Both the position numbers and the translations under genes were made by a program. Of a DNA stretch of 64,000 nucleotides, positions 7,438 through 61,180 are shown in pieces. Below the pieces are notes generated by a model. It saw only the letters and a program-made list of their open reading frames with translations, ran no database searches and was not told the DNA's origin. The DNA is taken from IMG/VR virus record IMGVR_UViG_3300013121_000036, positions 32,001-96,000 of that record, one strand, 5' to 3'. Numbering within the stretch: the first letter of the stretch is position 1; the number at the start of each line of letters is the position of its first letter. The DNA comes from a virus. Lineage: Duplodnaviria; Caudoviricetes.

Positions 7438-7765
7438 AGAAGAGTTCAAGCACATCGTCGTCGAGATCCTCAGGAGAAAGAGGGGCAACTTTGACCTTGC
7501 GGTTCTCGACAGAAAAGCAAGGTGGAGGCGACAGTTGTGGAGCCTGGCTGGAAGCATTGCCCACAATGCAAGGATGGTAGCGCCCGGATGGTGCTATGAC
7601 ATGGGCTCTACATACAAAGCCATCTGCGACCACGCCGTCTCTGCCGCTCGTCATGGGATGTCCCCTCAAAACACATCGTGGAAGACGGTTGTCGTGAGCG
7701 GGAAGGTCACGACGTTCTCCTTCCGTCGCAAGAGAAAAGAGGTGTACGGTCGAAGCGCAAGTTTA
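7430..7765 (+). CDS. hypothetical protein (ends at TTA)
   Basis: in-frame TTA 7763-7765 followed by AAGGAG RBS and ATG 7799. Confidence 0.55.
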
Positions 7766-7798
7766 CGGTTGTTGTCGCCAAGAAAAGGAGCAAGAAAG

Positions 7799-8269
7799 AT
7801 GAGCAGCAAGAGGCCAACGTACATCAACAGTGAAGAGGTTCGAGAGGCCGTTCTTTCGGAAGCGGTCAAGATCCTGATGGGGTGGGATAACAACCTCGAC
7901 GAGGAAGAGGCCAGGGACGCCATGGAAAGCGCCATCGACGCCGGGCTCAACCTCGACGGCTATCACCTCGCCAGGGAGCTTGAGCACGAATGGATCGACC
8001 CTGACGAGTCGCTCGTCGAGAGTCTGAGCCGACTCAAAGTAGTCTCGCGAAAGGCCGAGGTAGACGCCGTGAGGAAGTGGGTGACCGAGAACGGCATCAA
8101 GCCATCCAAGGCCGTCGGAGATCAGGTCATCAGGAATGGCATGAGTGGAGAGATCATCAGGGTCGACGAGAAGGACGCCGTGTACGTCGTCCACTTCCCT
8201 GATCTGGGCCACAAGAAGAGCAACGGCGTCCTCGGCCTACTCATCCCATTCGAGGAGGCAGGGGGTTGA
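7799..8269 (+). CDS. hypothetical protein, possible C-terminal SH3/KOW-like barrel
   Basis: own AAGGAG RBS; VGDQV...GEIIRVD...YVVHF. Confidence 0.65.
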   Translation: MSSKRPTYINSEEVREAVLSEAVKILMGWDNNLDEEEARDAMESAIDAGLNLDGYHLARELEHEWIDPDESLVESLSRLKVVSRKAEVDAVRKWVTENGIKPSKAVGDQVIRNGMSGEIIRVDEKDAVYVVHFPDLGHKKSNGVLGLLIPFEEAGG

Positions 8270-8271
8270 CA

Positions 8272-8739
8272 ATGAAGCTGGTCTTCACTCACGAGAAACA
8301 CCCTGTCGGAAAGTCTGTGTTCCTCGCAGGACCGACTCCGAGGTCGGCGACGACGCAGAGCTGGAGGGTAGGTGCGATAAACCTGTTCGAGAGGCACGGC
8401 TTCGACGGGTTCTTGTACGTCCCAGAGTTCAGGGACGGAGCGCGAGACAACGTCGCCGACGACGAGTTCGATCGTCAATGCCTGTGGGAAGATCGGGCCC
8501 TTGAGAGAGCCACCGTCATCATGTTCTGGATCCCCAGGAGGATGCCGGACATGCCATCCCTCACCACCAACGACGAATGGGGGCGGTGGAAGGACAGCGG
8601 CAAGGTCACCTTCGGAGCGCCACCGTGGGCCGAGAACGTGAGGTATCAGTGGTGGTGGGCTTCACGCCTCGGCATCGAAACATCCACTGACCTTGAGTCT
8701 CTCGTGGAGAAGACCATCAACAAGGCGAGATTTTGGTGA
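8272..8739 (+). CDS. nucleoside 2-deoxyribosyltransferase-like protein
   Basis: SVFLAGPTPR, SWR, YVPE, QCLWE, IMFWIPR, TTNDEWG motifs. Confidence 0.85.
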   Translation: MKLVFTHEKHPVGKSVFLAGPTPRSATTQSWRVGAINLFERHGFDGFLYVPEFRDGARDNVADDEFDRQCLWEDRALERATVIMFWIPRRMPDMPSLTTNDEWGRWKDSGKVTFGAPPWAENVRYQWWWASRLGIETSTDLESLVEKTINKARFW

Positions 8740-8751
8740 CGCCCCGCTGGC

Positions 8752-9369
8752 TAACCTCAAGCAAGCCAGCTCGCTAAGCTCGGCGAGGGCCTTCTCGTCG
8801 CCGGAGAAGACGTTCAGGTCGCAGGGGCCATCCACGCCGGTGGCCCTTCCCTCGTCTCCCTTGTATTGCCAGAAAGCCCAGCTCTTCCACGGCTTGGGGA
8901 GCATGGGTCGCGAGACACCGTAGTGGGCCACCCAGAGGCTCGCTCCAGATGTGTCGGTGGACTCGTCCCCGAAGGGACCCCACCATCCTGCGCCCGTGTA
9001 GACGATGACGTGGCCGAAGAGTGCCACCGCGCCGAGGATCATGCTGCGGCAGAACGCCCTCGTGTCACGACACCCCTTCTCCGTGAGCTGCTCGAAGTCG
9101 ATGGCGGGAGGAAGCCTCTTCTCGCCGCACAAGTCATGGGCGCAGGCAAGGGCATCGAGCTGCGCGTCCACGCTTTCTCTGCCGAGGGCGAAGACGTACG
9201 GGGCCACGTAGAGGCCAGCCTCGGCAGCCCCAGTGGCGTGCCTGACGAACATGTCGTCGGGAGAGGAGCCCCACCCGCACCTGGCAAAGACAAAGCTCTT
9301 TTCTCTGGCGACCTCTGGCCAGTTGACGCGCCGCTGACAGTAGGAAACGTCGATACCTTGGACTGACAT
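8752..9369 (-). CDS. GH25 lysozyme (endolysin); ends at TTA
   Basis: GIDVSYCQ, AIDFE, LWVAHY, WAFWQY, CDLNVF; in-frame TTA lies 12 nt before the convergent gene's stop. Confidence 0.88.
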
Positions 9370-9413
9370 GTGCGCAATGTCCCACACGATGCCACTCATT
9401 TCAAGGCACAAGG

Positions 9414-9442
9414 TTGACCAGAACAACTACTCGGACTAGGTT
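9414..9442 (+). promoter_or_regulatory. sigma70-type promoter, leaderless start
   Basis: TTGACC-17-TAGGTT, ATG 6 nt downstream. Confidence 0.55.
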
Positions 9443-9448
9443 GCCCAC

Positions 9449-19493: not shown

Positions 19494-19817
19494 ATGGACC
19501 AGTTTCCCGACCTGAGCAGCCTTGCCGCAACAGCAGCCATCGCCCCCCAGGCTCCGGGGCGACCCATGGGGACCACGCTTCGCGTGCAGCCTGGCCAAGC
19601 GCCAGCACGTCTCCCTGGGGCAGAGGCTGCCCCACCACAATCGTCATGGCTCAGCCCCAAGCTCGTCCTCGGCCTCGCCGCGGGGGCCGGGCTTCTCTAC
19701 TGGCTCATGAGTGATGACGACAACATGAAGAAGAACGCCGGCCCGGTCGTCGTGGACATCGAAGAGCCCGACGTCGAGCAAGGGGCGGAGGCGGAAGCGC
19801 CAGACGAGGACGAGTTA
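19494..19817 (+). CDS. membrane protein (ends at TTA overlapping next ATG)
   Basis: single TM, acidic tail, TTATG overlap. Confidence 0.65.
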
Positions 19818-20398
19818 TGCCGATCCTGCCAATCCACGTGAAAGCCCCCGTCGCCCCGAAGCTGCTCCCCAGCGCGAGGCACGTCAACCTTCCGTCGTCG
19901 ATCGCCACGGCAGAGGAACCGCAGGAAACCGACGAAGTGCTCGACGCGCAGTCAGAGGACGACGTCGTTGGCAACGGCATGTTCGACGACATGCCGACCG
20001 TGCACCTCGGCAACGGCATGTTCGAGGACAAGTGGAGTATGCCTGGCTACGCCGCTCGCGAAACGGGTCTCGGCCCGACCGAGGTCGTTGACAGAAACGA
20101 CAACCCCATCGGCGTCGTGACTGACAGGCTCTTCATGTGGCCCGGCAACGAAGAGGACGCACCTCCTCCGCTTCTCGAACCCATCGTGCTCCCGAACGCG
20201 GCTCAAGGGGTTGAGATGCTCGCGTCTCACGCCCCCGCCAGGCGGGGCATCTGGAACAACGACCGCATCCCCCCGACGGCCATCAGTGGCCTCGACGGTG
20301 GGGGATATGACTGGGCCAACCTCGCCATGTGGGCCGCCATCGGCCTCGCGGTCGGAGCTGGCGTGGCCTTCGTGGCCAAGAAGCAGGGGTGGTTCTGA
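19817..20398 (+). CDS. virion membrane protein
   Basis: GNGMF repeats, C-terminal TM. Confidence 0.7.
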   Translation: MPILPIHVKAPVAPKLLPSARHVNLPSSIATAEEPQETDEVLDAQSEDDVVGNGMFDDMPTVHLGNGMFEDKWSMPGYAARETGLGPTEVVDRNDNPIGVVTDRLFMWPGNEEDAPPPLLEPIVLPNAAQGVEMLASHAPARRGIWNNDRIPPTAISGLDGGGYDWANLAMWAAIGLAVGAGVAFVAKKQGWF

Positions 20399-20910
20399 TG
20401 TATACGCAACGAGGGCCGATGGGGTGGGTGAGCCCACCAAGCGCCAATCCTGGCTCTGTTCACTACAACCCTTACCCGCCGAACTTCCTTCCTCCAGTGC
20501 ACGTCGCCCCGACGGGCATGAGCGGCCTGAGTACCGCTGGAAAGGGAGTCGTGTTCGGAGCGGCCCTTGTTGCGTCTCTGGCGAACCCTATCGTCATGGG
20601 CGCGGGAGGCGTGGCTGCCGGCCTGGGGTACGTGTCCTCTTCCGAGGGAAAGGAAGTGCATCACGCCATCAAGTACGGTCTGATCACGTACGGCGTCGCC
20701 GCCTTCGTCCTCGCCGCCGGCATCACGTGGCTGGCCGACACCGTGGTTGACGCTGTCGAGTCGGCGCCAGAACCGGCTCCGGCGATCCCTCCGCCGCCCG
20801 TTCAGGGCGTTTCCCAGGGAGCCCCTGGCATGATCGGGACGCAGCAGACCTACAACGCGCCAGCCCAGTCTGGCATGGTGGGAACGTCTGTTTCGGGGTG
20901 GTGGTTATGA
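20398..20910 (+). CDS. membrane protein
   Basis: hydrophobic segments; ends TTA-TGA. Confidence 0.65.
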   Translation: MYTQRGPMGWVSPPSANPGSVHYNPYPPNFLPPVHVAPTGMSGLSTAGKGVVFGAALVASLANPIVMGAGGVAAGLGYVSSSEGKEVHHAIKYGLITYGVAAFVLAAGITWLADTVVDAVESAPEPAPAIPPPPVQGVSQGAPGMIGTQQTYNAPAQSGMVGTSVSGWWL

Positions 20911-21404
20911 TTCCATACACCATCCTCGCCATGGCAGGTCTCGGCGACGCTCCGCCGACCTGTCCCGACTGGTCGACGTACAGCCCCATGCTGGGCTCTT
21001 GCGTTCCCGACCCGTACTGGAAAGACAGGCAGCAGCCCGGCCTGCCAGGCTCGACTTGTCCTGATGGCAGCATCAAGGATCCGAACTACGGCATCTGCTT
21101 CCCAAGCACGATGCCCATTCCTGTGGCGACGAGCCCGACGCCGGTTGGGACGACGCCAAAGCTGCCAAGCATCGCAGACCCAGACTGGCAGGCCAGGAGG
21201 GTTGAGTGGTGCAAGTCTGACGATGCCAAGAGGCTCAAAGACGACCCTCTGACCAAGTCGCTGTGCTTTGACACGTTGCCCGTCAAGGCGGACACCCCGC
21301 CGGTGAAGCCGACAGAGAAGAGCGCTGGTGTTGGTACTGTCACCATCATCGGAGTGGGTCTTCTGGGAGCCGCCGCCGCCTACTACATCTTCAGCGGAAG
21401 GTGA
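20907..21404 (+). CDS. Cys/Pro-rich virion membrane protein
   Basis: AGLGD motif, CPD repeats, C-terminal TM. Confidence 0.7.
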   Translation: MIPYTILAMAGLGDAPPTCPDWSTYSPMLGSCVPDPYWKDRQQPGLPGSTCPDGSIKDPNYGICFPSTMPIPVATSPTPVGTTPKLPSIADPDWQARRVEWCKSDDAKRLKDDPLTKSLCFDTLPVKADTPPVKPTEKSAGVGTVTIIGVGLLGAAAAYYIFSGR

Positions 21405-21408: not shown

Positions 21409-21936
21409 ATGCCGGAGAACAAAGTCATCGATCAGGACGTCATCAACCAGGCCCTCATCGGCATAGTCATTGGCGGCGTCCTCATCGGCATCTCCGCGTT
21501 CTTCGGCGGAGCCGCGTACCTGCACAGGAAGGTGAACAAGAAGGTCACCATCATGGTGCATGGCTCGCCACGGCTCGTGACACCCGAAATGGCTTACGAG
21601 CTTGGGATACCGAGCAAGTTCTGGGACCAGACACGTGGCATATGGGACTCAGCCACCACCGCCAGAAACGAGGAATACTGGGAGTCAAGGTGGACCGGAA
21701 AGAAGCCCATGCAAGTGTCAGACAGCGGCGAGTGGCCGGCGACGAACTTGGAAGGGCCGCTGGCGGACAGCGGCGAGTGGCCGGTCAGCGGACAGAACCA
21801 GGAATGGGCCGAGGCCGAGGTCAGGGACTGGGAGTACGGTGCATCTCCGCATAGCCTGGCGGAGTGGTCCACCGAGGCATATCGACTTCCTGCCGACGAC
21901 ACGGACCTTTCGGAGCTGCGTAGAGGAAGGTCCTAA
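21409..21936 (+). CDS. N-anchored membrane protein
   Basis: IDQDVINQALIGIVIGG TM; DSGEWP x2. Confidence 0.65.
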   Translation: MPENKVIDQDVINQALIGIVIGGVLIGISAFFGGAAYLHRKVNKKVTIMVHGSPRLVTPEMAYELGIPSKFWDQTRGIWDSATTARNEEYWESRWTGKKPMQVSDSGEWPATNLEGPLADSGEWPVSGQNQEWAEAEVRDWEYGASPHSLAEWSTEAYRLPADDTDLSELRRGRS

Positions 21937-22370: not shown

Positions 22371-22853
22371 ATGTCTCTGGGTATTTTCGACAACGTCGAT
22401 GCAATCGACGCCGGCTCCGATGGCGTCGACACGCCTGACGCCACCGAAGCGGGCAACATCGCGACCGCTGGAGTCCTTCCGCTCATCGCCATCCTTGGTG
22501 GGGCTGCCTACGTCAAGGAACAGTGCGAGACGACTCACGACATGCCAGACTTCGTCTGCGAGCAGATGGGGTGGAGCTTCATAGGGACGCTCCCGAAGGA
22601 CTTCTGCGCCCCCGGCTATCAGGTGTCTCCATCTGGCGGCTGTGTTCCGGCGACGGCACCTTCGACGCCGACCTCGTCGAAGCCCGCATCAACACCGACT
22701 TCGCCGAGGCCGACTTCGCCGAGGCCGATGCCGACCACGACGACGCCCGCCGTTCTTCCGCCACCGCCACAGAAGAGTGGAATCAGCACCCCCGTGATGG
22801 TCGCAGGTGGGCTGCTGCTGCTGGCTGGTGCTATCTATTTCCTGAAGAGGTTA
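22371..22853 (+). CDS. virion membrane protein (ends at TTA)
   Basis: Pro/Thr linker, TM, YFLKR-TTA, next ATG 4 nt later. Confidence 0.7.
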
Positions 22854-22857: not shown

Positions 22858-23496
22858 ATGTCCATCGGTTCTCTCGCGGGCAAGGGCGGTCTCGGGTCTC
22901 TTGGCTCGGCCGGCGCGCTCGGCATCTTCGACGATTTCGACTTCGGCGACTTCTTCGGCGGGTCGGCTCCCATCGACGCTGGCACCGAGGGTGCCGGCGG
23001 TGGCGACACGAGCGGCGGCGTCGACACGTCACCCCTCACGCCCCAGACGGGCGAGGCTCCCGTCAAGACGTCTCCAGGCGCCGTGCCGAAGTTCGACATC
23101 TGCGCCCCGCCGTACGTCCAAGACCCGCTCAACCCCAACTTCTGCATCCTCGACTCGAAGGTCAACACGACCTGCCCCAAGGGCCAGGTGTATGACCCTG
23201 TCAAGAAGGGGTGCGTCTCGTCGGCCGACTACTACGACTTCCTGGGTGGTCAGGGAACCCATGTGGACCCGACCAAGCAGAACTGCCCCTACGGCCAGAA
23301 GCTGGTCAACGGCAAGTGCGTGAACCTGGCGGCTCCGACTCCGACCGGGACCAGCACCGCGAAGCCCCCCCCGAAGCCAGTCGTCGCCGCCCCCCCGCCT
23401 GCTCCGGCCAAGAAGAGCATGATGGTTCCGCTGGTCGTCGGCGGCCTGGCGCTCCTCGCCGTCGGCGGCCTCGCCTACTACGCCAAGACCCACTGA
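22858..23496 (+). CDS. Cys-rich virion membrane protein
   Basis: GGLGSLG, CPxGQ repeats, C-terminal TM. Confidence 0.7.
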   Translation: MSIGSLAGKGGLGSLGSAGALGIFDDFDFGDFFGGSAPIDAGTEGAGGGDTSGGVDTSPLTPQTGEAPVKTSPGAVPKFDICAPPYVQDPLNPNFCILDSKVNTTCPKGQVYDPVKKGCVSSADYYDFLGGQGTHVDPTKQNCPYGQKLVNGKCVNLAAPTPTGTSTAKPPPKPVVAAPPPAPAKKSMMVPLVVGGLALLAVGGLAYYAKTH

Positions 23497-24349: not shown

Positions 24350-24768
24350 TGTTTGCAACGAGGAGCAGGGCTGGAGGTGCAAACCTGCCACCTCCGTCTC
24401 CAACGGAAGGGCAGGTCTACTCCGTCCCGAGACTGTCCGGCGGATACGACTATTTCCGCGGCAAGCCAGGCTCCTCGGTCCCGATCAACGACGACGTCGA
24501 TGTGCCCGTGGTGGCGCATCCCAACCCCATCGGGGTGAGCAGCCTGACCATCGGCTGCTCATTGCCCAACGGTGCCGTCTACATAGGCCGTGGCGATGTA
24601 GCCAGGGGGTGCGTCACTCCGATGCCAGGGGCTGGGTCCACGACGGAACTGCGGACGGGGCTCGGCTTCGTTGACGCAGACTCGGCCAACACCATGGCGG
24701 GCATCACCACGCTGGTCGTCGCAGGCGTCGCTTTCCTTGCCATAGGCTACTTCGTCACGAGGGACTGA
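24346..24768 (+). CDS. virion membrane protein
   Basis: GYDYF...LPNGAVYIGRG..ARG; TGLG then C-terminal TM. Confidence 0.7.
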   Translation: MMFATRSRAGGANLPPPSPTEGQVYSVPRLSGGYDYFRGKPGSSVPINDDVDVPVVAHPNPIGVSSLTIGCSLPNGAVYIGRGDVARGCVTPMPGAGSTTELRTGLGFVDADSANTMAGITTLVVAGVAFLAIGYFVTRD

Positions 24769-25274
24769 TGCCAAGGACAGTGCTCGACACCAAGCCCTAC
24801 GCCGCCAACCTCCGCAAGACCTTCACTGCGAAGCCGCTGCGCCGAGGAGAGTACGACGTGGGTGTCATGTGGCCCACATCCCTGGTGCACGTGGGCACGT
24901 GCGAGTCTGTCATGTACTCCTCGGACAAGTGGTACGAGGATGGAGAGTTCATCGACTACAAACACGTCGCTGAGGGCCCCCAGAAGCTGTACGTCAACAG
25001 CAACCTCGCTGGACACAAGTGGTCCGGCAAGAGGGTCAAGATGTGCGAGCCGCTCCCCAGTCACGTGGCCGAGCTGGCCCCTTGCCTTGGCATCCAAAGC
25101 GTCTTGCACGACGGCAAAGCCGTACAGATCAGCATTCCCAACTGCATCCTGTTCGGCACCAGGACCCCGGTGGGCAAGGTCCCATTTCTCGTCCTGGCTG
25201 TTCCTGGCGACATGGTGTGCGCCATCGTGACGGGCGAAGAGCTTGACGTGACCTCCGACGGCATTGTCGGGTTA
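24768..25274 (+). CDS. hypothetical virion-module protein (ends at TTA)
   Basis: YSSDKW, YKH; ends VTSDGIVG-TTA. Confidence 0.65.
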
Positions 25275-29142: not shown

Positions 29143-29868
29143 ATGGCCAAGCTGACCAACATCCGTGAGCGCGTTCAACAGCCCTTCCGCGATGCGCTCG
29201 TGCGCACCTCGGGCCTCTATGCCGGCACCCTTCAGGACAGGACCAACCTGTTCTCGAACGGCACCAACAAGGACGTCGGGTCCACCAACTTGCCCTCGGG
29301 CAACCAGCTCCCCAGCGACAACAGCATGATCGTGCTGGCGCTGCGCGTGTTCACGTGGTTCCGCCAGAGCATCCTGCGCGGCGAAGCCAACAACGGCGAC
29401 GTGAGCGACTTCCCCAACGGCGCCGGCGAGATCGGTGAGAACAACGTCCTCGGCGCCACCGAGGACGTGTACCGCCTCTACTGGCAGAGCCAGGAGCAGC
29501 TTTTCTGGACCTTCGGCGCTGGCGGCAAGCCCAGCATCGAGCTGATGCCCTCGGCCTACTTCCCCTACGGCGGCGGCCTCCCCGGCGACCTGGGTGGGGC
29601 GTCGGACATCATCAACCTCTACAACGGCGACGCCGGGCACGATCACGTGCTGAAGCTCGCTCGCGCCATCCTCCTGGTGCCGCGCCAGTCGATCAAGTGC
29701 GAGGCCGTCATCCAGGCGCTCCCCGACGGTGGTCAGGCGACCACGTTCGGCACCACCCAGGGCAGCCGCAACATGCTGTCGCTGACCGCCAACCTCAACG
29801 CGGTCGACGCCATCCAGAAGGTGATCACGTTCACCTTCGACGGCCTCTTCTCGCGCGACGTGCAGTTA
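29143..29868 (+). CDS. putative major capsid protein (single jelly-roll type); ends at TTA
   Basis: strong codon bias; QPFRD...LFSN...TNL..GNQLP...FTFDGLFSRDVQ beta-rich pattern; hairpin-rich sequence follows the TTA. Confidence 0.65.
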
Positions 29869-30011: not shown

Positions 30012-31187
30012 ATGATGCAAGATCCGAACATCCAAGCCCTGATCAACAACGTCAACCGTCAGAACGCATTCCTGCGGCAGCTCAGCGACAAGACCGTGGC
30101 CAGCGAGGAGGCCGCGAAGCGAGCACTGAACCAGCTCGAAGGCATGAAGAGCGTCATGTCGCGACTGAGCATCGGTGGCGGCGGTGGCGTGAGCCGGTTC
30201 GGCTCGAACGCCCCCATGGGCAAGGGACCGAGCGGCAAGTGGGTGTCGCTCGACGAGATCCCCGGCCGCCGCATCCCCTACGACTTCCACGTCAGCATCC
30301 TCATCCGAAACGGTGAGGCGAGCGAGACGAGCGGAACGCTGTACGTCACCCCCGACGGCCCGTTCGTGGCGACGGCGCGGTACGCCATCTTCCAGTCGGC
30401 GCACCAGTTCCGCTACTCGTCGGAGAGCGGCGTGTCGACCTTCAGCGGTCGCTCGTATGGCCGTTTCCGCCCCATCCACTCTGCCAACGACATCATGGAC
30501 GCGCAGAGGGCCTTCGAGCAGCTCTCGATGTACCAGCCCTCGTACGTCGGAGCCACGCTCAATCCGGCCGGCAACGCAATCGTCCCCGTCCCCAACCCCG
30601 CTGCCGTTCATGTCGGCAACGGTGGCGGCGCCGGCACCGCGACGTCGGACCAGTCGAACCTGCTCCCCAACTTCCCCGGCAACGGCGCTCCGATCTACAC
30701 GTCGCCGCTGTCCATGGCAGCTTTCCGCACGATGCAGTTCGACGGCCGGTTCGTCGTCGCGGTGAAAGGGTCGCAGTTCCAACGTGCGGAGGACCCGAGC
30801 GGCGTCCCTTCGACGTTCTGGGCAACCAGGGGCAGCGATCCGTTCCCCCTGGCGTGCGAGGACATCTTCGACCCGGGCGAGACCATCGAGATCAAGGTTC
30901 GCCCGAACCATCCGAACAACCCCCAGTTCGGCAACATCTCTGGCCTGATGTATCAGGGCAACGACTTCACGTTCACTCCCGCCACGGCATCGTCTGCCAA
31001 CAACCCCGCCCCCGTCGGCCCGTTCCCCTTCCTGTCGGGCCAGTTTGACGGGCACGAGGGCATCAACGACCGATCTGTTCAGGGGGACTCGACCAGCACG
31101 ACGGATCGGGTGAGCCGCGCCGAAGACGGAATCCTGATCATCGGGTTCCTCGGCTACCGCATCCTGCCCCCGCCTGGCGTCTACTGA
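30012..31187 (+). CDS. putative second jelly-roll capsid protein with N-terminal coiled coil
   Basis: AGGAG RBS; DGPFVA...FDPGETIEIKV...IIGFLGYRI. Confidence 0.55.
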   Translation: MMQDPNIQALINNVNRQNAFLRQLSDKTVASEEAAKRALNQLEGMKSVMSRLSIGGGGGVSRFGSNAPMGKGPSGKWVSLDEIPGRRIPYDFHVSILIRNGEASETSGTLYVTPDGPFVATARYAIFQSAHQFRYSSESGVSTFSGRSYGRFRPIHSANDIMDAQRAFEQLSMYQPSYVGATLNPAGNAIVPVPNPAAVHVGNGGGAGTATSDQSNLLPNFPGNGAPIYTSPLSMAAFRTMQFDGRFVVAVKGSQFQRAEDPSGVPSTFWATRGSDPFPLACEDIFDPGETIEIKVRPNHPNNPQFGNISGLMYQGNDFTFTPATASSANNPAPVGPFPFLSGQFDGHEGINDRSVQGDSTSTTDRVSRAEDGILIIGFLGYRILPPPGVY

Positions 31188-35249: not shown

Positions 35250-35480
35250 ATGCGCAGGTTGCACAGTGTTGCTCTTCTCGTCCTTGCTCTCTCCGGGTGC
35301 TCCGCCCTCAGCCGCGTCCCCACGAAGGAAGGGTGCCAGGTTGTCGATGCCGTCCACAAGGCGTGCGTCCTCCTGCGCTTCATCGACCCCGAGACGGGCC
35401 GTGAGACAGAGGTCTCGCTGACGCCAGAGGAAGCGTCCAGGTTCGGCGCCAGCATCGCCGCTGCGAAGCGCGGGAAGTGA
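35250..35480 (+). CDS. putative lipoprotein
   Basis: signal peptide with lipobox LALSGC. Confidence 0.6.
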   Translation: MRRLHSVALLVLALSGCSALSRVPTKEGCQVVDAVHKACVLLRFIDPETGRETEVSLTPEEASRFGASIAAAKRGK

Positions 35481-36367
35481 GCCGGAGAATGCCCGCCATG
35501 GATCAAAATCTGAAACGAAGGGACTGGCCATACTCCAGAGCGAAGCCGTATTACGCGACCGCTGAGTGGATTCTGTTCGAAATACCGACTGGTCTTGAAA
35601 CAGATTTTGTGCCCACGGTATCCCTCGTCGAGGGGATGAGCGTTGATTCGTCTGACATGTCAAGTGTCGAGGCGGAGCTGCGGTTGAATGGTCTCATGTT
35701 TGATCCGGGCTATATGGTCCGCCCGTTTCATGAGATAGGTGAGACGAAGGCACCGTATACGTCCGAAATCGTCGGCTTCACCGTCGGTACCGTTTACCGC
35801 GGCAAGTTGGAGCGGCTCGAAGCGCATCCAAACAACATGTTCTTCACCGAGCGAGACAACGTCTTCCTGGCCATCGTGTACGCCTCTGCCAAGCCCACAT
35901 GGTACTGGGAGAGGAACTCGAAGTACGGGTACGAAGAGGGCAAGTTGCCTGGCCCAGACGAGTTCGTTGTTGTTGCCGACGTTGTGGAGTTCAAGTGGAA
36001 GTCGTACCCGCTGCTGCTGGAAAGGGTGAACAATTTCTTTCCGGCATCGCCACTCCTTGCCGGCGGCGTGTTCGACAGCAGGGCCGAGGCGAAAAGCTGG
36101 AGTGACAGGGTAGCAAGGGCGTTTGCCGCCAGAGCGAATGACATTGCTAGAACATCTAGGATTGGATCGGCAAATCCCAAAACGTGGGACTATTTCGCGT
36201 CTGAAGTTTTGCCAACCGCCGAAAGGTACGTGCTGCACACCAAGAAGGGGGCCTTCGAGCAAGACGTGCCTTTGAAGTACAGCAGGCATATCAAGGTCGA
36301 CCCGAAGAACCTGATGAGGTACCTGATGGAGCACGAGGAACAAAGTCTCATCCCTCGGGACGGGTGA
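35477..36367 (+). CDS. hypothetical protein (paralogue A)
   Basis: DWPYSR.KPY, YEEGKLP, FDS..EA..WS, ERYVLHT shared with next gene. Confidence 0.75.
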   Translation: MSRRMPAMDQNLKRRDWPYSRAKPYYATAEWILFEIPTGLETDFVPTVSLVEGMSVDSSDMSSVEAELRLNGLMFDPGYMVRPFHEIGETKAPYTSEIVGFTVGTVYRGKLERLEAHPNNMFFTERDNVFLAIVYASAKPTWYWERNSKYGYEEGKLPGPDEFVVVADVVEFKWKSYPLLLERVNNFFPASPLLAGGVFDSRAEAKSWSDRVARAFAARANDIARTSRIGSANPKTWDYFASEVLPTAERYVLHTKKGAFEQDVPLKYSRHIKVDPKNLMRYLMEHEEQSLIPRDG

Positions 36368-36374: not shown

Positions 36375-37238
36375 ATGGCCAAGAAGCAGCCAACAAGGGC
36401 CAGGTCGATCACGTTCGATGACTGGCCGTATTCGAGGCACAAGCCGTACGCTGCCGTCGTCGAGTGGCCTTGCTTCAGCCGTGACCTGTGGCTTGGCAAG
36501 AGCATCGGCGACATTCCCAACGCCTTTCTCTTCGACTGCTTCAAGTTGGACGCTTCGGCGACGTCGGCCAGCGAACGCATGGCGCAAGAGCTTGGTGGAA
36601 AGTACAGCCCCGCCGCACTCGTCTTCGCCGGACTGTCACTGCCGATGCCAGATGGCGAATCCAAGAGTTCTCGCATGGTCGTCGGAGCCCCAAAGGGGCA
36701 CCTGATAGACGACTTTTTCATGAACGTGACCGATCTCGACGAGATCATGTTCACGGAGAAGGACAACCTGTTCATTTCCTTCTCGTACTACTCAAGGAAG
36801 CAGTCGTGGTACCACGAGAGGAACAGCTCCTCCAGGTGGTCGTACGAAGAAGGAAAGTTGCCAGACGCTCCAACTCCGGTGGTGGCATCCAGCGTTATAA
36901 ACCTCAGCTTCGCATCACTCTCTTCGCTCGCCGGGGACATCGGCGAGCGACCAGCTTTCTCTCACGCTGTTGCGAGCGGCATCTTCGACAGCAAGAGAGA
37001 AGCAGAGGCTTGGTCGAAGAGGGTGAGTGTGGCCTTCGCCAAGGAGGCCGAGGACGCCCCGAAAGGAGACGACCTTGACGCCTGGGATAACTTCTGCTCA
37101 GGCGTGATGCCGGACCATGAGAGGTACGTGCTGCACACCATGAAAGCGGACCTCCGTGGTTCGAGAAGGATTCACTTCGACAGAACCGTCAAGGTGGACC
37201 CCATGAAGCTGATGAGGCTGGTTGGAGATGTGATGTTA
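36375..37238 (+). CDS. hypothetical protein (paralogue B); ends at TTA
   Basis: aligns with paralogue A up to KVDP..LMR; TTA then ATG 2 nt later. Confidence 0.75.
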
Positions 37239-37240
37239 CC

Positions 37241-37964
37241 ATGGCCAAACTTCTTGCCATCGCTGGGTTCGGGGACGAAACGCTGCCGCCAGGGACCCCG
37301 TCTGGGGTGCGAGACCTCACTCTGGAGCAGAAGCGAGCCATTTTCGACGGCTGGGGGACTGTGCTTGTCCTGAGCCTTCTTGCGGGCGCCTCCCTGTACT
37401 GGTGGTATTCTGGCGAGAAAGAGGACAGGGGACGATGACCAGCTCGCACTGGGCCGACAGGTTCGAGGCTTCAGCTTCTGCCATGGACGAGGCACAAGTG
37501 GATCCGCGCGTGCACCCGCTCTTGAGGAAGGCTTGTATCGAGGCGATGCTCGCCGTCGCCAAAGAGCTGCGGGAAGAGGCGAGAGCGGAAGGAGACGATT
37601 CATGACACCCCAGCAAGCCCTTTCAACTGCGCTCCAGCTCCCCTACTTCGGCGTGCGGCAGCACCTGCGGTCACACGGCATCGGCGACATCGTCGATGAC
37701 CAGATCCAAGACCTCAGCGCCAGAGTGGTCGACAACGCCTGGCCCGTGGCGCGAGATCGCATCATCTCCGACATACCAGCCCTCGTTGAGACGGCGGCCT
37801 ACCACCTGAAGCCGAGGCTGAAAGAAGCGGCCGTGGAGGTTGCCCAAGACCTCTCCGTGCAGCAGGCAATTGGCGCCGCGAAGCAGCAGGCCCTGCTCGT
37901 CGCCGCCGGAGCTTGTCTGGGCACGGCCGTCCTGACGTGGGCCCTTGTCAAGTACGTCGGTTGA
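37241..37964 (+). CDS. three small genes (37241-37438, 37435-37605, 37602-37964), two with C-terminal TM
   Basis: ATGA overlaps; GFGD and GIGD motifs. Confidence 0.6.
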
Positions 37965-37997: not shown

Positions 37998-38597
37998 ATG
38001 AGCGATGATGGATCCGGCAAGGTCAAGCCGTTCGAGCCTGGGGACAAGATCGTAGGATTCGTGGCTGGGGGAGGGGCGGCTCCATCGACGTCAGAGGAAC
38101 GCGAGATCGCCTTCTGGAAGGCGGACGCTGAGCGACGCCGAGCGGAACAAGACAGGGAGAGGGAGCTTGCTCAAAGGGGCGGAGCCAGGCGCCAGACCCT
38201 CGACCTCGGGTCGCCGACGATGCACCCAGTCGTTGTGATGAAGATCACGATCGCGGGTCACGATGAGTACGCCCAGTGCGACGTGGTCAACATGTCCACG
38301 GACGGCAAGATGGACCTCGCTCTCGTCGTGCCGTGCCCCGGATGCCTCCGACGAGGGTACTCGACCGATCAGGCGCAGATCCACATCAAGCAGAGCCACC
38401 GCAAGTGGAGTCTCGACCGACGACACGAAGGCAAGCTGTGGGTGGACCCGGAGACGGGGCAGGCGTACCGACTGGCCGGCAAGCCTGTGGGCGAAGAAAC
38501 ATACATTTGCTCGCGGTGCAGGTTCGCCTTCGTCATCGACGACCGAGCGGACACGGGCCACGAGGGTGTCTCTTGGATGCGTCCGGTGAGGGCATTA
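37998..38597 (+). CDS. Zn-ribbon hypothetical protein (ends at TTA)
   Basis: promoter TTGACA-17-TAGCCT at 37961; CPGC...CSRC; TTA-C-ATG junction. Confidence 0.65.
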
Positions 38598-38598: not shown

Positions 38599-39849
38599 AT
38601 GGCGACGACAAAGGATCTTGAACGCTTCGTCGCGACTGGCTCTGAGAAGGACGTGTCGAGGCCAGAGTTCGCGGAGGCCGCCGCGGATCAGAAAATGGCT
38701 CCTGATGGGTACGTGTGGCGAGGTCACTGGGAGGCTCCATACGACGGCACCAGCGAGGCGACGAGGCGCCTTGCTCTGGCCCTCTCTGCCCACAAGCCAG
38801 TGTGGCTCATGAGTCAGTCTGGCCCCATGGTGGACACGCCTGAGCGTATCAGGGCCATGGTCGCCCCACTCAGAGACAGGGGTCTCAAGCGCACCCTGCT
38901 GACCATCGACCACTTCGTCCCGACCCTCAACGACGTGCTTGCCAGGGTGAGGCCGAGGGTGTCAGGCAACGAAGACCTTGTCGAGCGGGTCAACAGGGCC
39001 AAGATTTTCCTCACCGTGTGGGAGCGAGAGGGCGTCTCGAAGCCGCTCGGAGCACTCCTGTCGAAGGTCGGGATGAACTGGGTTCCGTGCGAACGTAACA
39101 AGGAGGCTCTCCTCGCGGCTGGCGTCAACAACGTTCGAATCGTGCCACACGTCTACAGGGCTCCCGTCGCCAGGGCTGAGAAGAAGCTCCAGCCGTCAAC
39201 GCACCCGTACTACTTCTACTCAATAGGGAAGTGGGAGCCTCGCAAGAACAACGTTGCCATCATCGAGGCGTTCCTCCGGCGTTTCTCCCCGAAGGACCGC
39301 GCCTTCCTGTGGATGAAGACGAGCAAGTTCGGGACGTTCTCTGGGTACCCAGATACGCCAGCCAAGGCCCTGTCACAACTGCTGTCGAAGCCAGAGGTGA
39401 GGGATAAAGGTTGGGACATGACCAACGTCCAGCACAAGATAGCCATCGTGACGTCAGCGCTGTCCGACGCCGACATCGAGCGGGCTCACGAGACTGGGGA
39501 CTGCTACGTTTCTGCATCTCATGGTGAGGCTTGGGACATGCCAGCGTTCGACGCCGTAGCTGCCAGGGCGAGGCTTGTTCACGTCGGCTTCGGAGGCTCT
39601 GAGGACTATGCTCCCAGCAACGCTGTCTGCGCCTGGAGCGGCGAGAGGGAGTCGTGTCACGTGGACTACAGGTGGGAGAAGGACTCGCGGTGGGCCAAGG
39701 TAGACGTTGACCTTCTTGCCAGATCGATGGGGGAAGCATACGAAGATCGGCAGCTCGGTGGTGAGATCGATCTCTCTCGCTACAGCGCTGCGTCGGTCGG
39801 GAAGTTGATGGCAGACCTCTGCCAGGAAGTGCTTGACGCAGCCAAATGA
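38599..39849 (+). CDS. GT-B (GT4-like) glycosyltransferase
   Basis: FYSIGKWEPRKN, DCYVSASHGEAWDMPAFDA. Confidence 0.85.
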   Translation: MATTKDLERFVATGSEKDVSRPEFAEAAADQKMAPDGYVWRGHWEAPYDGTSEATRRLALALSAHKPVWLMSQSGPMVDTPERIRAMVAPLRDRGLKRTLLTIDHFVPTLNDVLARVRPRVSGNEDLVERVNRAKIFLTVWEREGVSKPLGALLSKVGMNWVPCERNKEALLAAGVNNVRIVPHVYRAPVARAEKKLQPSTHPYYFYSIGKWEPRKNNVAIIEAFLRRFSPKDRAFLWMKTSKFGTFSGYPDTPAKALSQLLSKPEVRDKGWDMTNVQHKIAIVTSALSDADIERAHETGDCYVSASHGEAWDMPAFDAVAARARLVHVGFGGSEDYAPSNAVCAWSGERESCHVDYRWEKDSRWAKVDVDLLARSMGEAYEDRQLGGEIDLSRYSAASVGKLMADLCQEVLDAAK

Positions 39850-47730: not shown

Positions 47731-48104
47731 ACGGCGGATTGTAGCCCACCGTCACGATAACTACCAGGCCGACGAAGCGACCTCATGGCGCTCGACAGCG
47801 CCCGCGACGTGTCGACGTTGGCAAGTTGAACTCGCCTCTCGTCATCGGTGCCTAGGATTTCCCTGGCGATGGCGTTGGCCAGGTCGATGTTCGTCGAGAC
47901 CACGAAGATGTGGTTGCCGCTCGCGCAAGACCTCGTGTGCTTCTTGCACTTGCCGCACAGTAGGTGCCCCAGCTTCGCCCTCGTGTGCTGAAGTGCGAGC
48001 CTTGCCCCGGCCCTGCCATACGTTGGATCTATCCAGGCGAACACTCCAGCCGGCCTCCCGGTGGTGAACTCGTATCGAAAGAACACAGCCTCTATGTAGC
48101 TCAT
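47727..48104 (-). CDS. hypothetical protein
   Basis: AGGAG RBS. Confidence 0.55.
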   Translation of the reverse strand: MSYIEAVFFRYEFTTGRPAGVFAWIDPTYGRAGARLALQHTRAKLGHLLCGKCKKHTRSCASGNHIFVVSTNIDLANAIAREILGTDDERRVQLANVDTSRALSSAMRSLRRPGSYRDGGLQSAV

Positions 48105-48658
48105 CGTTTTCTCCTGTGTATCGTTGTCTCGTCGTACAGAGCGCCCCACGTCGGGTTCATGAGCCGCTCGACCTCATCGAAGGCCGACGCCAAAAGCTGG
48201 TGGAACTGGTCGTCAGCGGTGCAGCCGCCGGCTCCCTCTCCACAGTAAGCAACGTACTCTCCGCCAAGCGAAAGGTGCTTGACGGTAGCGTTGTAAGCCA
48301 TGGGGCTTTCATATGGTGGCCATACGAGCAGCAGTGTCCTTGCTGGCGGCATGTCGTTCAGGTCGTCCGTCACCCCGATGGGGTAGTACCTTGTTCTCCA
48401 CTTTTCGGCGTCGAAGGCCGATATCTTGCCGCCGGCCTCAGCTATCATGGAGGCCCAGTATCCGCTGCCAGCTCCCCACTCAACGATGGGCGAATACTTC
48501 GCTATGGCCCTGATGGTCTTCTCGTCTGGGATACCCCACGAGTATTTCCTCACCAGTTCCCATCGCTCTTTCGGCATGATGCGAGGGAGCCTGCCTTCGT
48601 CCCCCATGAACGGCTCAAGCTCTTCGAGGTACGGGTTGGCGATGGTCTTGTTCTTCAT
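48101..48658 (-). CDS. SAM-dependent methyltransferase-like protein
   Basis: IVEWGAGSGYWA, LLLVWPPY, YCGE..GGCTA. Confidence 0.75.
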   Translation of the reverse strand: MKNKTIANPYLEELEPFMGDEGRLPRIMPKERWELVRKYSWGIPDEKTIRAIAKYSPIVEWGAGSGYWASMIAEAGGKISAFDAEKWRTRYYPIGVTDDLNDMPPARTLLLVWPPYESPMAYNATVKHLSLGGEYVAYCGEGAGGCTADDQFHQLLASAFDEVERLMNPTWGALYDETTIHRRKR

Positions 48659-48691
48659 GTTGCCATTATACCTCGAAGAGCTTGGCAAGGT

Positions 48692-49078
48692 CTACTTGAA
48701 CCTACGCCTCGGGTAACACTTGAAGAACAGGTTGGACAGCTCCAGCCTCGTCTTCATGGTCGCCTTTCGCAGCTTCTTTGCAACTTCGCTGTCGCCACAC
48801 TCTTTGGCGGCCTCCAGGCAGGCATCCTTCAGCTCCTCGTCTGTCAAGGCAGCCATGATTCTGTTCTTCAGGCTGATGTACCTGGACCTGCGCATGGTCT
48901 CCAGCATGAAGTAGTTCACGTACGAGAGAACGTAGTCCGGCGACACGAAGCCGATGTCCTCCAGGCTGCAAGCCGCCGCCATCACCTGGACTGAAGCGAT
49001 GCGATGACCGAACAGCAAGAGCGCGTCGGAAGCGCCCTGCTCTGCCGCTATCTTCATGATTTCCATGGCGCGCCTCAT
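48692..49078 (-). CDS. hypothetical protein
   Basis: ends in TAG, in frame with next gene. Confidence 0.55.
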   Translation of the reverse strand: MRRAMEIMKIAAEQGASDALLLFGHRIASVQVMAAACSLEDIGFVSPDYVLSYVNYFMLETMRRSRYISLKNRIMAALTDEELKDACLEAAKECGDSEVAKKLRKATMKTRLELSNLFFKCYPRRRFK

Positions 49079-52598: not shown

Positions 52599-52671
52599 CT
52601 TCGTCTCCTTGTCTGGGCTCGTGGTCCCATTCGGGGGATCGGGTGTCCGATCCCCCTGACGGGATCCCGAG

Positions 52672-57581: not shown

Positions 57582-58505
57582 TCAAACGTACTTTCGCAAG
57601 CTCTCCGCGAGATCCCGCCAGTCGCCGCCGGCCACCTTGGTTGGTACCTTGGCGTCAGGGAACTTGCTCCTCAGAGCTTCACCCCACATCGAGAGTCTGT
57701 GTTCGTTGAACACACCCGTCTTGAGGGCGAGCGTGTAGACGGCGTCATGCCCGCCGTGACATGCGTCCAGGCAGGCAACAGCAGCCGCTGCGAACTTGTC
57801 GAGCTTCATCTTGGCGATCTCGAACGGGAACGAGGCGGCTTCTCGTCTCCTTTCCACGACGCCATCTTCCACCATGAACCCATCGGTCTTCGGCGGGGTG
57901 TCGTCGTTGCTGCCGCGGAACGCCTCCAGGTCAGCAGCGATGGCATCGTAGACCTTGTCGAGAGAACGACGAGTGTGGCTCGTGATGCTCCCTTCGAGCT
58001 TTGCAAGATGCGGCCTGACGATCTCCTCGACTGCACCGATGGTCTTGTCGTCGCACCAGCCGACAGAGAACACGTTGCCGAACCTGTGCAGGTGACTGAG
58101 CCCAACAGACAGGGCGCCGTCGTTGCACCACAGCTCTGCGCTAACGCCTGATGTTGCGCCTCGAAAAGACGACCCAAACCTGAGGCGTCCTTTGTACTTC
58201 TCGCAGATGGAGCGAACGATGACGCTGCTCGCCTGCCACGGTATCGGTGCCAGACCAGTTGGGTTCCAGTGGCCGGTGGCGTGGATGGCCCACGCGAGCC
58301 TGGACGCATCTCGCGGGCACAGAGACCTGACTCTCTCGACCAGCGACTCATCGTCGGGGTACGGGCACAAGAGGTTGTGCGGCTCTTGTGACATCCCCCT
58401 GCAAGCCTCGCCCAACTCAAACGCGAGCCTCTTGTGTTCCTCTGGAAGACCCATGAAGAACGGGAGAGCAGCCTCCCAGAAGGCCGTTTCGTAATCGAAC
58501 TGCAT
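57582..58505 (-). CDS. hypothetical protein
   Basis: RBS in repeat. Confidence 0.65.
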   Translation of the reverse strand: MQFDYETAFWEAALPFFMGLPEEHKRLAFELGEACRGMSQEPHNLLCPYPDDESLVERVRSLCPRDASRLAWAIHATGHWNPTGLAPIPWQASSVIVRSICEKYKGRLRFGSSFRGATSGVSAELWCNDGALSVGLSHLHRFGNVFSVGWCDDKTIGAVEEIVRPHLAKLEGSITSHTRRSLDKVYDAIAADLEAFRGSNDDTPPKTDGFMVEDGVVERRREAASFPFEIAKMKLDKFAAAAVACLDACHGGHDAVYTLALKTGVFNEHRLSMWGEALRSKFPDAKVPTKVAGGDWRDLAESLRKYV

Positions 58506-58595
58506 CTTTCTTCTCCTTGTTGGCTGCCGTGTGGCAGCGGGCCCTCCCGAGGCGCGTCACGCCTCGTTCGCAGACTGCGGAGGGCTTGGTGGTTG

Positions 58596-59906
58596 CTACT
58601 TGGTGACGGCGGCGTAGATGGATTGCCACGTGCGCTCCATGGCGCTCACGTGCTCTTTGCTGCCGTCCGCAGCACCATCCATGTGGCAGCACTCGTGAAC
58701 CAGGACACCAAGCATCTTCGGCTCGTCGTCGAGCAGGGCGGCCTTGATCGTGATCAGGCCCTGCTTGTCGTCACACGTCCCGAGGAGGTTCGGGTCTCGG
58801 AACGTGGAGAACTTCAGGTTGGCCAGGTGAACGTCGTGACCGGCTTGCTGTACGAGATGCAGACACTTTCGCACACGGGCCCTCTGCTCTGGAGACACGT
58901 CTGCCCACTGTACCGTTGACGTGACCTCCTGCTTGAGCTTGATCTTCCGGTCGCCAAGGGCGCCCGTGACCTTCTCGGCGACGGCCTGGAGCGCCTCGTT
59001 CACGACGACACCCTTCAGGCCGAAGTGCTCGACCTCTTGAGCGTCGGCCATGTTGCTGACCGGAACCGCGTCGGTCCCGAACTCAGCCGTGAACTCAGCC
59101 AGGATGGCCTTCGCCTGGTCATCGGAGAACCGATGAGCGTCGTACTTGCTGAAGTTGACGCCGTTCTCGTCTGGGCTGCGGAGCTTCTTGTATAGCTCCG
59201 CGTTGGCGATCTTGCCGTTCCGGTTCGCCTCCAGCCAGATGGCCTCCATGGCCGCCTCGGCCGTCCACCTGTCGACCATCTTGCGCTCGATGTCGGTTTC
59301 CACGCCATCGAGGTCGTACCCCTCAGGTATTCGCCATGACGCCACGTAGATGCCCTTGACGAAGACCATGCCGACCCTGTCGTGGTCTTTGATGAGGCGA
59401 CCACGGGTCGTCTCGATCGCGTTCCTCGGCGGCGAGAGGAACAGGAACTTCCCCTTGTACTCCTCCCACGCGGCCGATGAGATGCCCTCGATCTCGACGG
59501 TGACGTCGCTCGTCTTCAGGCGTGCCTGCCTGAAGTTTATCACAAGCACCCTCCGGTTGAACTCATTATCGAACTCGATCGCAGGGGCCCAAAGCTCGTC
59601 GCCGTTCCTGATGCGGACCTTGTGCCCGGCGCGTGCGAGCGCGAGAAGACCGAGGGTCAAGCCCTCTCCGTACTTGCCGATCGTATCAGACCGGAGACGC
59701 TTCGACGACTCTCCGATCAAGAGCGCGGCGCGGGGGATGGTGATCCCCTTGTTCGAGATGGTGAGAACGTCCCCTTTGTGAGAGACGCTCATCTCTGCTC
59801 CGTGCTCCGTTTCTGCGTCGCGGGCGTTCTGGATCAGTTCTCGAACGCCCTCCCACGTGCCCCACCAGTTGCGGTAGTCGACCGTGAGGCCGATGCTCAT
59901 CTTCAT
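58596..59906 (-). CDS. GHKL ATPase fused to a zincin-like HExxH domain
   Basis: VRELIQNARD, GESSKR, IGKYGEGL; LVHECCH. Confidence 0.8.
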   Translation of the reverse strand: MKMSIGLTVDYRNWWGTWEGVRELIQNARDAETEHGAEMSVSHKGDVLTISNKGITIPRAALLIGESSKRLRSDTIGKYGEGLTLGLLALARAGHKVRIRNGDELWAPAIEFDNEFNRRVLVINFRQARLKTSDVTVEIEGISSAAWEEYKGKFLFLSPPRNAIETTRGRLIKDHDRVGMVFVKGIYVASWRIPEGYDLDGVETDIERKMVDRWTAEAAMEAIWLEANRNGKIANAELYKKLRSPDENGVNFSKYDAHRFSDDQAKAILAEFTAEFGTDAVPVSNMADAQEVEHFGLKGVVVNEALQAVAEKVTGALGDRKIKLKQEVTSTVQWADVSPEQRARVRKCLHLVQQAGHDVHLANLKFSTFRDPNLLGTCDDKQGLITIKAALLDDEPKMLGVLVHECCHMDGAADGSKEHVSAMERTWQSIYAAVTK

Positions 59907-59984
59907 TTCCGTTCTCCTTGCTGGCTGCCCGAAGGCAGCGGGCCCCGCCCGAGGGAACGATCCTCGGTGCGCCAGCGCGGGGCT

Positions 59985-60302
59985 TCACAGTTCGATGATG
60001 GTCTCTCGTTGACCACCTGTCGCTGCCAAGAGGCAGGCGGCCTTGTCGGCCTTCCTATGCCCCCTCGGTACGAATTGGAACAGGGCGCCCGTCCTCGACG
60101 TGTGGCGAGGGATCACGCGCCCCTCTATCGAGTTGGCGAAGTCTTCGAGACCTCGCGAGCGGGCGGCGGAGGCCGCCGCCTCAGCGAACACCCTGTAAGC
60201 CTGCCGAAGAGCCTCGAAAGGCTGTTCTTCGCTGGGCTTTCCGTTTGGCGTCAGCACTTGCATCCTGACGCCCTCGGGCTCAAGGCTGACGCGGACCTTC
60301 AC
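59985..60302 (-). CDS. hypothetical protein
   Basis: GTGA overlap. Confidence 0.55.
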   Translation of the reverse strand: MKVRVSLEPEGVRMQVLTPNGKPSEEQPFEALRQAYRVFAEAAASAARSRGLEDFANSIEGRVIPRHTSRTGALFQFVPRGHRKADKAACLLAATGGQRETIIEL

Positions 60303-60631
60303 GGCTCCACCTCTGCGAGCAGACGCCTTAGCTCCGAGAGCCTCCCGGCGAGGTTCGCGACGGCCTCGTCCACCATGTCGTCGTAGGAGTCGGACGACTT
60401 GAAGTCAGCCTCGGACTCGTACGAACAGCCGCCGAGATACACAGGTTCGCCTGAAACGCCCCCGTACGTGGCCCAGACCTTCGCGCAGAACCACGCGAAG
60501 ATGTTGCCGTCGTTTGACTCTTTCAGGATCTCTAGGACAACTTCGTTGTCCTCTATGCACCCGCCAGGGTGCATGTCCTCGTCCAGGGGTACGAAATGAA
60601 TCGCGACCCCCTTGGTGTCTTTCGTGATCAT
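60299..60631 (-). CDS. acidic phage hypothetical protein
   Basis: own AAGGAG RBS; WFCAKV...YLGGCSY. Confidence 0.7.
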   Translation of the reverse strand: MITKDTKGVAIHFVPLDEDMHPGGCIEDNEVVLEILKESNDGNIFAWFCAKVWATYGGVSGEPVYLGGCSYESEADFKSSDSYDDMVDEAVANLAGRLSELRRLLAEVEP

Positions 60632-60694
60632 GTTCTCTCCTTCTGGGCACGCTTGCCCCATGGGGGAGACGACCGTTGTCGGCTCCCCGAGCGG

Positions 60695-61180
60695 TAAGCG
60701 TTTGGTCTTCTTCTTGAAGACGGCCGGCGTGGCGCTCCATGGGAGATGGTGCGTCACATCGCCCTTCTCCCTCGCCTCATCGAGGCTCCTGTTGACGCCC
60801 TCCCAGAAGGCGTCGAATTTGTACTTCGCGAGCGGGGAGGGCTTGCACACGTTCGTCGCGACGGAAGCGACTTCGTTCTCCTCCCGCTCGTACTCGATCG
60901 CAACGTGCCCGCTGCCGTCGCAGTCGTACTCTGGGGATTTGATCCCCAAGAACAACGAGAAGAGGCTGGCGTTCACCTTGTGCCGGTCAACGACGCAGCC
61001 GTGGGCGATGATGAAGCGACGACAGCACGGGCATCGGGCCCACACGCCGACGCCAGCCCACCTGCCGAGGCGAGAGTGGTACCCGTAGCAACATGGGTCT
61101 CCATCTTCGTCTTGCGTGACTTCGCGCGCCTCGCACTCAGCTTCGCGAATGCGGGAGCACATCGTGATGCACTTCTTCAT
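60695..61180 (-). CDS. Cys-rich hypothetical protein (ends at TTA)
   Basis: KKKTKR-TTA followed by two hairpins and the next RBS. Confidence 0.6.

Follow-up and report, generated by a model that had tools for sequence, protein, structure and literature searches.

The phage considered here is represented by a single 110,758-bp IMG/VR genome with 61.6% GC and direct terminal repeats (record IMGVR_UViG_3300013121_000036), and its codon UUA (TTA in the DNA) very probably serves as a fourth stop codon, in addition to UGA, UAG and UAA, and is not read as leucine, as far as can be judged from the sequence. The stretch under study, referred to as the window, comprises 64 kb (bases 32001-96000 of the virus record), and all coordinates are positions in this window unless the genome or an L-number is stated. 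A preliminary description of the window had proposed UUA as a stop codon, and the proposal is borne out by a drop of coding signal behind TTA, the gain obtained when a gene model is allowed to stop at it, tight gene junctions, the termini of homologues, the retention of TTA in diverged relatives and the loss of a back-up TGA.

Coding potential was scored with a codon-usage log-odds model trained on the long open reading frames (ORFs) of the phage itself. In a drop test, each codon was considered where 30 coding-like codons preceded it, and it was asked whether the 30 same-frame codons behind it were non-coding-like. For in-frame TTA the positional pattern noted earlier in the window extends to the whole genome, the downstream log-odds being negative at 14 of the 17 testable sites (82%; median -0.29 bits/codon), as compared with 78% and a median of -0.32 bits/codon for TGA and 7-41% for the other 60 sense codons. 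At the three TTA sites with downstream coding signal, a new same-frame gene with its own start was found, with a clear Shine-Dalgarno motif and ATG in two of them. The same test on six other phage loci with 64-70% GC (L004-L007, L009 and L010) gave no such signal; TTAs are rare and internal in these loci, and coding continues behind them. The TTA signal is therefore not generic to GC-rich phages, and an artefact of the test on GC-rich sequences is ruled out.

In an extra-stop test, a simple gene caller was re-run 61 times, each time with one codon as a fourth stop. TTA was the sole codon to raise the total score (+512 bits), the number of genes going from 160 to 174 with higher coverage, and all other codons lowered the score, the next best being CTA at -131 bits. 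Among the 33,248 internal codons of the four-stop model there is no TTA, as compared with 60 CTA and 231 TTG, and even the lowest NNA/NNG ratio of the genome leads one to expect at least about 17 internal TTAs. This absence is partly by construction, and the weight is thus carried by the drop test and the extra-stop test.

TTA closes about 25 of the 174 genes of the four-stop model, or about one in seven; these genes occur on either strand, and the regions for replication, partition, lysis and virion all include some. The canonical stops are still in use, as had been reported, with UGA ending about 127 genes, UAG 12 and UAA 9, and a genome-wide recoding of TAG was rejected. Under a standard-code gene model the whole genome holds 20 in-frame TTAs, all of which sit where coding potential or homology stops, and no TTA lies inside any Pfam match, PHROG match or homologue alignment. 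A frameshift at TTA was also rejected, since the codon read would be TAC or TAT (tyrosine) at 23 of the 25 sites after a +1 shift and NTT after a -1 shift, and so were UUG and UCA as co-terminators, both being common internal codons (TTG in the number given above).

Within the window, TTA and TAA are both rare as trinucleotides, with about 60 per strand. The 13 TTA codons listed in the preliminary description were all found at their positions in the frames of credible genes, and they make up the complete set of in-frame TTAs in the credible genes of the window. Four further in-frame TTAs (42190, 52167, 52191 and 53175) are situated upstream of start codons in stop-to-stop frames and therefore outside genes. 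All 13 sites, described earlier as gene boundaries, are gene ends in a model that permits TTA as a stop. The earlier statement that gene bodies are free of TTA also holds, with none in frame in the helicase or in a 1414-aa protein in which a tyrosine-integrase domain is present. The 13 sites are as follows.

TTA 7763..7765, + strand: ends 7430..7765 (111 aa); next gene 7799..8269 in the same frame after a 33-nt spacer
TTA 8752..8754, - strand: ends the GH25 endolysin gene 8752..9399 (215 aa); convergent with 8272..8739 (+)
TTA 11846..11848, + strand: ends 10601..11848 (415 aa); TTATGA overlapping the ATG of 11848..12294
TTA 17414..17416, + strand: ends 16421..17416 (331 aa); next ATG at 17421, gap of 4 nt
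TTA 17892..17894, + strand: ends 17421..17894 (157 aa); next ATG at 17909, gap of 14 nt
TTA 19815..19817, + strand: ends 19494..19817 (107 aa); TTATG overlap with 19817..20398
TTA 20905..20907, + strand: ends 20419..20907 (162 aa); TTATG overlap with 20907..21404
TTA 22851..22853, + strand: ends 22371..22853 (160 aa, hydrophobic and basic C-terminus); next ATG at 22858, gap of 4 nt
TTA 25272..25274, + strand: ends 24768..25274 (168 aa) at a convergent gene end; the 38-codon tail scores -6.3
TTA 29866..29868, + strand: ends 29143..29868 (241 aa); 143-nt spacer to the ATG at 30012
TTA 37236..37238, + strand: ends 36375..37238 (287 aa); next ATG at 37241, gap of 2 nt
TTA 38595..38597, + strand: ends 37998..38597 (199 aa); TTA-C-ATG with 38599..39849
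TTA 60695..60697, - strand: ends 60695..61180 (161 aa); next gene 60299..60631 in the same frame after a 63-nt spacer

Once TTA is taken as a stop, gene junctions resemble ordinary phage ones, with TTATG overlaps or gaps of 1, 2, 4, 4, 12 and 14 nt, and mostly a Shine-Dalgarno motif and ATG follow. Under translation table 11, the same genes would extend by up to 504 codons, either overlapping the next gene out of frame or fusing with a same-frame neighbour. The same-frame spacers are plainly intergenic, with AAGGAG-N8-ATG past 7763 and AAGGAG-N5-ATG past 60697, and the TTA at genome position 26979 is followed in the spacer by TTGACA-N17-CATACT and a Shine-Dalgarno motif. The convergent gene ends at 8752 and 25272 and the TAA-C-ATG motifs at 21934 and 22367 are present as had been described, the latter having the same layout as the junction at 38595. 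At this last site, a relative contig (SRR1027651) shows the same 207-aa read-through call, with an overlap of 23 nt with the next gene. The read-through tail of the endolysin (29 codons) scores -4.8, that at 17414 (42 codons) -22.3 and that at 29866 (48 codons) -20.3, and at 22851 the standard-code tail amounts to 113 codons and overlaps the next gene.

Homologues support the C- or N-termini at five or six sites, VapE doing so only approximately, and the remaining sites are without homologues for this comparison. In a table-11 ORF of 671 aa (L002:11481-13493), codons 167 and 503 are TTA. An exhaustive HMMER search with this ORF gave about 1,950 matches, and the best 150 of them are stand-alone ParB-like proteins, nearly all 260-330 aa long, whose residues 1 to about 311 align to residues 200 to about 500 of the query and none of which covers the flanking segments. 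The aligned stretch runs from the ATG past the spacer to the second TTA, and the best match (49% identity, on a contig with 68% GC) has a TGA at the same C-terminus. The 671-aa "protein" appears really to be three genes. At 60697, a homologue (P0188) with 86% identity over 161 aa is 162 aa long, its canonical stop being one codon from the TTA column. Similarly, at 7763 a stand-alone protein of 156 aa (P0191, 88% identity) aligns over residues 1-156 to residues 124-279 of the fused ORF and starts at the ATG located 11 codons past the TTA, and phrog_17597 matches the downstream part alone.

In the 254-aa frame that opens at TTG 9426, the matches to Pfam GH25 and to PHROG endolysins stop near residues 190-221; in the 215-aa protein read from ATG 9399 this is roughly 181-212. 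The GH25 proteins of the closest Atlas clusters are 175-219 aa long. The site at 37236 had been placed near the end of a paralogue, and indeed the adjacent gene 35477..36367 aligns over residues 1-283 to residues 1-283 (33% identity, E-value 5e-39) and stops soon afterwards; it has nothing that corresponds to the 44-aa read-through tail. Distant homologues of the VapE-type primase-helicase end about 26 residues before its TTA, and the 112-codon tail translates to junk with repeated DNA words. No homologues were found for the post-TTA extensions examined, and no TTA was found at an internal conserved leucine, two checks that had been named beforehand as able to refute the proposal and that both favour it. 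Homologue searches with a fused ORF of 1124 aa found none.

Conservation was assessed in short contigs of near kin in other data sets, which were found by exact-protein look-ups and derive from six other runs or assemblies (Logan DRR235449, DRR235450, SRR13225479, SRR34317625 and SRR34317595; NCBI GCA_054404015.1). Their nucleotide identity is 97% for L014 and L017, 95% for L015 and L016, 93% for L018 and 98-99.8% for L019-L022. At 8 of the 13 sites these independent contigs read TTA and not TAA or TGA, which largely rules out the consensus error that the preliminary description had allowed for. The TTAs that are kept include those at 7763 (L019), 11846 (L022), 19815 (L016 and L017), 20905, 22851 (L018), 25272 (L020 and L021) and 37236 (L014 and L015). 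Out-of-frame TTAs near 19815 have changed in the relatives, the one at 19242 to GTA and the one at 19293 to CTA.

Of the TTATG overlaps described at 11846 and 20905, the overlap as such is confirmed; both read TTA-TGA, however, and are ambiguous when taken alone. At 11846 the TTA could be a last leucine codon before TGA, and it is kept in L022 despite a different preceding codon. The site at 20905 is settled by L016, which reads TTA-TGG followed by no stop for at least 43 codons, up to the contig end; TTA is therefore the sole terminator in this relative, and the TGA is dispensable whereas the TTA is not. The gene at 22371-22850 is hypervariable, as relative to L018 it has 109 substitutions together with several indels, each a multiple of 3 nt long, and still the TTA is kept; the next gene, 22858..23496, shows only five differences.

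As regards the mechanism, no RF-1 or PCRF domain and no bacterial Pth domain was found in the phage genome, and a phage release factor or bacterial Pth was therefore rejected as the terminator. A tRNA-Leu(UAA), whose loss had been considered earlier for both virus and host, is not encoded in the virus genome, to which this result is confined. The sole Rfam-supported tRNA (3046-3118) has the anticodon CUA; a tRNA-Asp(GTC) called by ARAGORN (genome 528-602, - strand, in L001) has a poor cloverleaf, falls below the Rfam threshold and is probably spurious. Since the phage has no class-I release factor, Pth or tRNA-Leu(UAA) of its own, termination must use host components or an unrecognised phage factor. 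Most likely, the host would then be devoid of a UUA-decoding tRNA and its release factor would accept a wider range of codons; an RF2 variant is the likeliest candidate, and the Ser204-substituted bacterial-type RF2 of labyrinthulean mitochondria and peDinoflagellate plastids would be the precedent for it. Termination mediated by a release factor is rated the most likely route because the published UUA-stop systems all lack the cognate tRNA and have a specific change in a release factor of bacterial type (PMC12574857). It is possible, though we put it forward only tentatively, that the bacterial host itself uses a four-stop code, with tRNA-Leu(UAA) lost and an RF2-type factor reading UUA, and that the phage mirrors it. 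Scans of genome contigs with the endolysin and with VapE in search of the host matched nothing.

An alternative, raised in a similar form in the preliminary description and considered unlikely by us, is that UUA is unassigned, with neither a cognate tRNA nor a release factor, and that ribosomes stall at it and are released in a codon-independent manner, by ArfB-like rescue, by peptidyl-tRNA drop-off and hydrolysis, or by ribosome splitting together with a Pth-type hydrolase. All the evidence for TTA as a protein end fits this explanation equally, the phage carries no release factor, and its own PTH2-domain protein, encoded beside a suppressor tRNA, might help. However, stalling on intact mRNA is usually slow and leads in bacteria to tagging by transfer-messenger RNA and degradation, which would suit poorly a set of 25 genes including those for replication, lysis and virion; moreover, all organellar UUA-stop cases are tied to release-factor changes (PMC12574857). 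More doubtful still is a bldA-like gating, in which UUA would mean leucine only when a rare tRNA-Leu(UAA) is available and the TTAs would be regulatory pause or read-through sites yielding extended or fused proteins at some stage. In Streptomyces the rare UUA has a regulatory role, and for Streptomyces phages a UUA-dependent bypassing has been put forward (PMC10732093); in the present phage the next gene lies in the same frame at 6 of the 25 sites; this proportion, however, is about that expected by chance (one third). Judged by codon usage, the majority of tails do not code for protein, and they run into the following gene out of frame; the spacers carry Shine-Dalgarno motifs and in one case also a promoter-like -35/-10 pair, the homologues are never fused, and the internal conserved leucines are free of TTA. 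As TTA is one base away from both TAA and TGA, it might also be a consensus error, or else an ordinary rare leucine codon in real C-terminal tails, but we give this hardly any credence, as the contigs from six independent runs or assemblies also read TTA and chance is excluded by the codon-by-codon controls together with the negative controls on other GC-rich phage loci.

Some observations weigh against UUA as a terminator. The available relatives are close (mostly at least 95% identical), and hence their conservation is only moderately informative. Three to four sites, with TTA-TGA or with TTA and a near stop, also fit a leucine followed by a stop, and the ORF that the standard code gives at 29866 would close with a canonical ATGA overlap (30012-30015). 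The C-terminus of VapE is not at the same column as that of its distant homologues, being about 26 aa beyond it. Finally, we know of no free-living bacterium with a release factor that reads UUA.

A second peculiarity concerns the amber codon. The cassette at 2212-3119 (+) begins with a sigma-70-like promoter (TTGACA-N17-TACTAT) and a tiny leader (ATG-CTC-TAG...RGPP...TGA) overlapping the ATG at 2330, after which a 122-codon ORF ends at TAG 2696 and is followed in frame by a PTH2 domain (PF01981, 38.7 bits) beside the tRNA(CUA). The arrangement suggests a PTH2 gene that is gated by an amber codon and supplied with a suppressor tRNA of its own. The TAG at 2696 is the clearest read-through candidate, and only the leader and the PTH2 cassette resemble amber read-through. 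In addition, a TAG at 48692-48694 (-) separates 48692..49078 from 48101..48688; the two share a frame, and coding signal is seen on either side of the TAG. Either these are two neighbouring genes, or the amber suppressor has a second client here.

Recognisable genes of the phage include the GH25 endolysin, the VapE-type primase-helicase, a ParB-like protein, a helicase, a Sak4-like protein and glycosyltransferases. Relatives of the phage are few. A megablast search of window positions 10000-32000 against GenBank phages gave no match, and a metagenome scan for more distant relatives was empty. An 837-aa protein has only three homologues, at about 34% identity, and standard stops are used in their contigs. 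Scans of viral contigs with this protein and with the PTH2 protein gave no match, and with the helicase one relative at 31% identity was detected.

Codon usage is odd for a genome of 61.6% GC, as AGG is the top arginine codon (877 as compared with 212 for CGG) and ATA (129) exceeds ATT (92). Thermophiles and a few anaerobic lineages typically show such a preference for AGG and ATA, which may serve as a clue to the host. Palindromes are strongly avoided genome-wide (window and L001-L003). TTAA occurs 0 times against 8.4 expected, and the same count of 0 was obtained for GAGCTC (54 expected), CAGCTG (37), AGGCCT (36.5), AGATCT (30), CTGCAG (16), ACGCGT (15), ACCGGT (14) and AGTACT (13.5), which suggests pressure by many host restriction systems. 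Among local features, the product of 22371-22850 (+) has a weak LPXTG-anchor-like match. A stretch of 135 nt at 37239-37373, covering the start of a small ORF (37241..37438), is without any difference in L014 and L015, which differ by 3-5% on either side, and it may be a conserved RNA or DNA element. In the 340 nt past the VapE TTA (L002:10340-10680, i.e. genome 25340-25680, to the left of the window) there are repeated DNA words translating as WQAWQVWQ and LPHLPHL, followed by a gene-free gap of 511 nt; these repeats could be iterons or an origin adjoining the primase-helicase.

If the reading of UUA as a stop is right, gene callers that use table 11 give fused or over-long products for about 14% of the phage genes, for example in the 671-aa ORF and in fusions of 279 aa and 293 aa, and such read-through artefacts are already present in the public protein collections searched. 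Termination at UUA in this phage would mean either that there are bacterial hosts whose code has escaped recognition or that a new termination mechanism is at work, and would provide a natural test case for the broadening of release-factor specificity, with a bearing on host prediction, gene-transfer barriers and the design of recoded organisms. If the host does use a four-stop code, it would be the first free-living organism with a code of the sense-to-stop kind, and amino-acid-based screens such as Codetta could not have detected it. Codetta infers amino-acid meanings only, and a sense-to-stop change would appear in it as an uninferred codon; the Codetta screen, the largest of prokaryotic codes, did not include phages (PMC8629427).

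In a full-text literature search, UUA as a stop was found for organelles only and for no phage or free-living prokaryote, and for phages and UUA the search returned only the UUA-dependent bypassing in Streptomyces phages (PMC10732093). What is new, therefore, is that the sense-to-stop use of UUA known from organelles would extend to the bacterial and phage world. UUA is a stop in labyrinthulean (Thraustochytrium) mitochondria (NCBI table 23), and UUA and UCA are stops in peDinoflagellate plastids (PMC12574857). The release-factor changes concern Ser204 of RF2 in these two systems and mtRF1a in two green-algal lineages (PMC12574857). Organellar UUA has gone from leucine to stop, as it probably has in the phage, and, as in the phage, it is absent from gene interiors and is placed where homologues end, there is no genome-encoded tRNA(UAA), and the standard stops are retained in a translation system of bacterial type (PMC12574857). 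The organelles, however, have tiny genomes with a dedicated Ser204-substituted RF2, whereas the phage, with its high-GC genome of 111 kb, depends on a bacterial host. The mitochondria of Marsupiomonadales and Pseudoscourfieldia marina, with a modified mtRF1a, share the change of UUA from leucine to stop (PMC12574857), but UUG is also a stop in them, whereas TTG is an ordinary internal codon of the phage with its 231 uses.

Phages with recoded stop codons (TAG to glutamine or TGA to tryptophan, with suppressor tRNAs) are similar in that their genes are mis-called under table 11 and that the present phage too has a tRNA(CUA); the direction is nevertheless opposite, a sense codon probably becoming a stop here, and TAG still ends about 12 genes. 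The bldA system of Streptomyces and the bypassing in its phages (PMC10732093) resemble the present case in high GC, in the rarity of UUA and in decoding being limiting. In Streptomyces, however, UUA is found inside coding sequences and is read as leucine or bypassed, while in the phage it occurs only at gene ends with nothing conserved behind. The bacterial reassignments of AGG, CGA and CGG detected by Codetta (PMC8629427) likewise show sense codons changed in a prokaryotic type of translation, but these are changes from one amino acid to another in low-GC genomes, unlike the proposed change from sense to stop in the phage.

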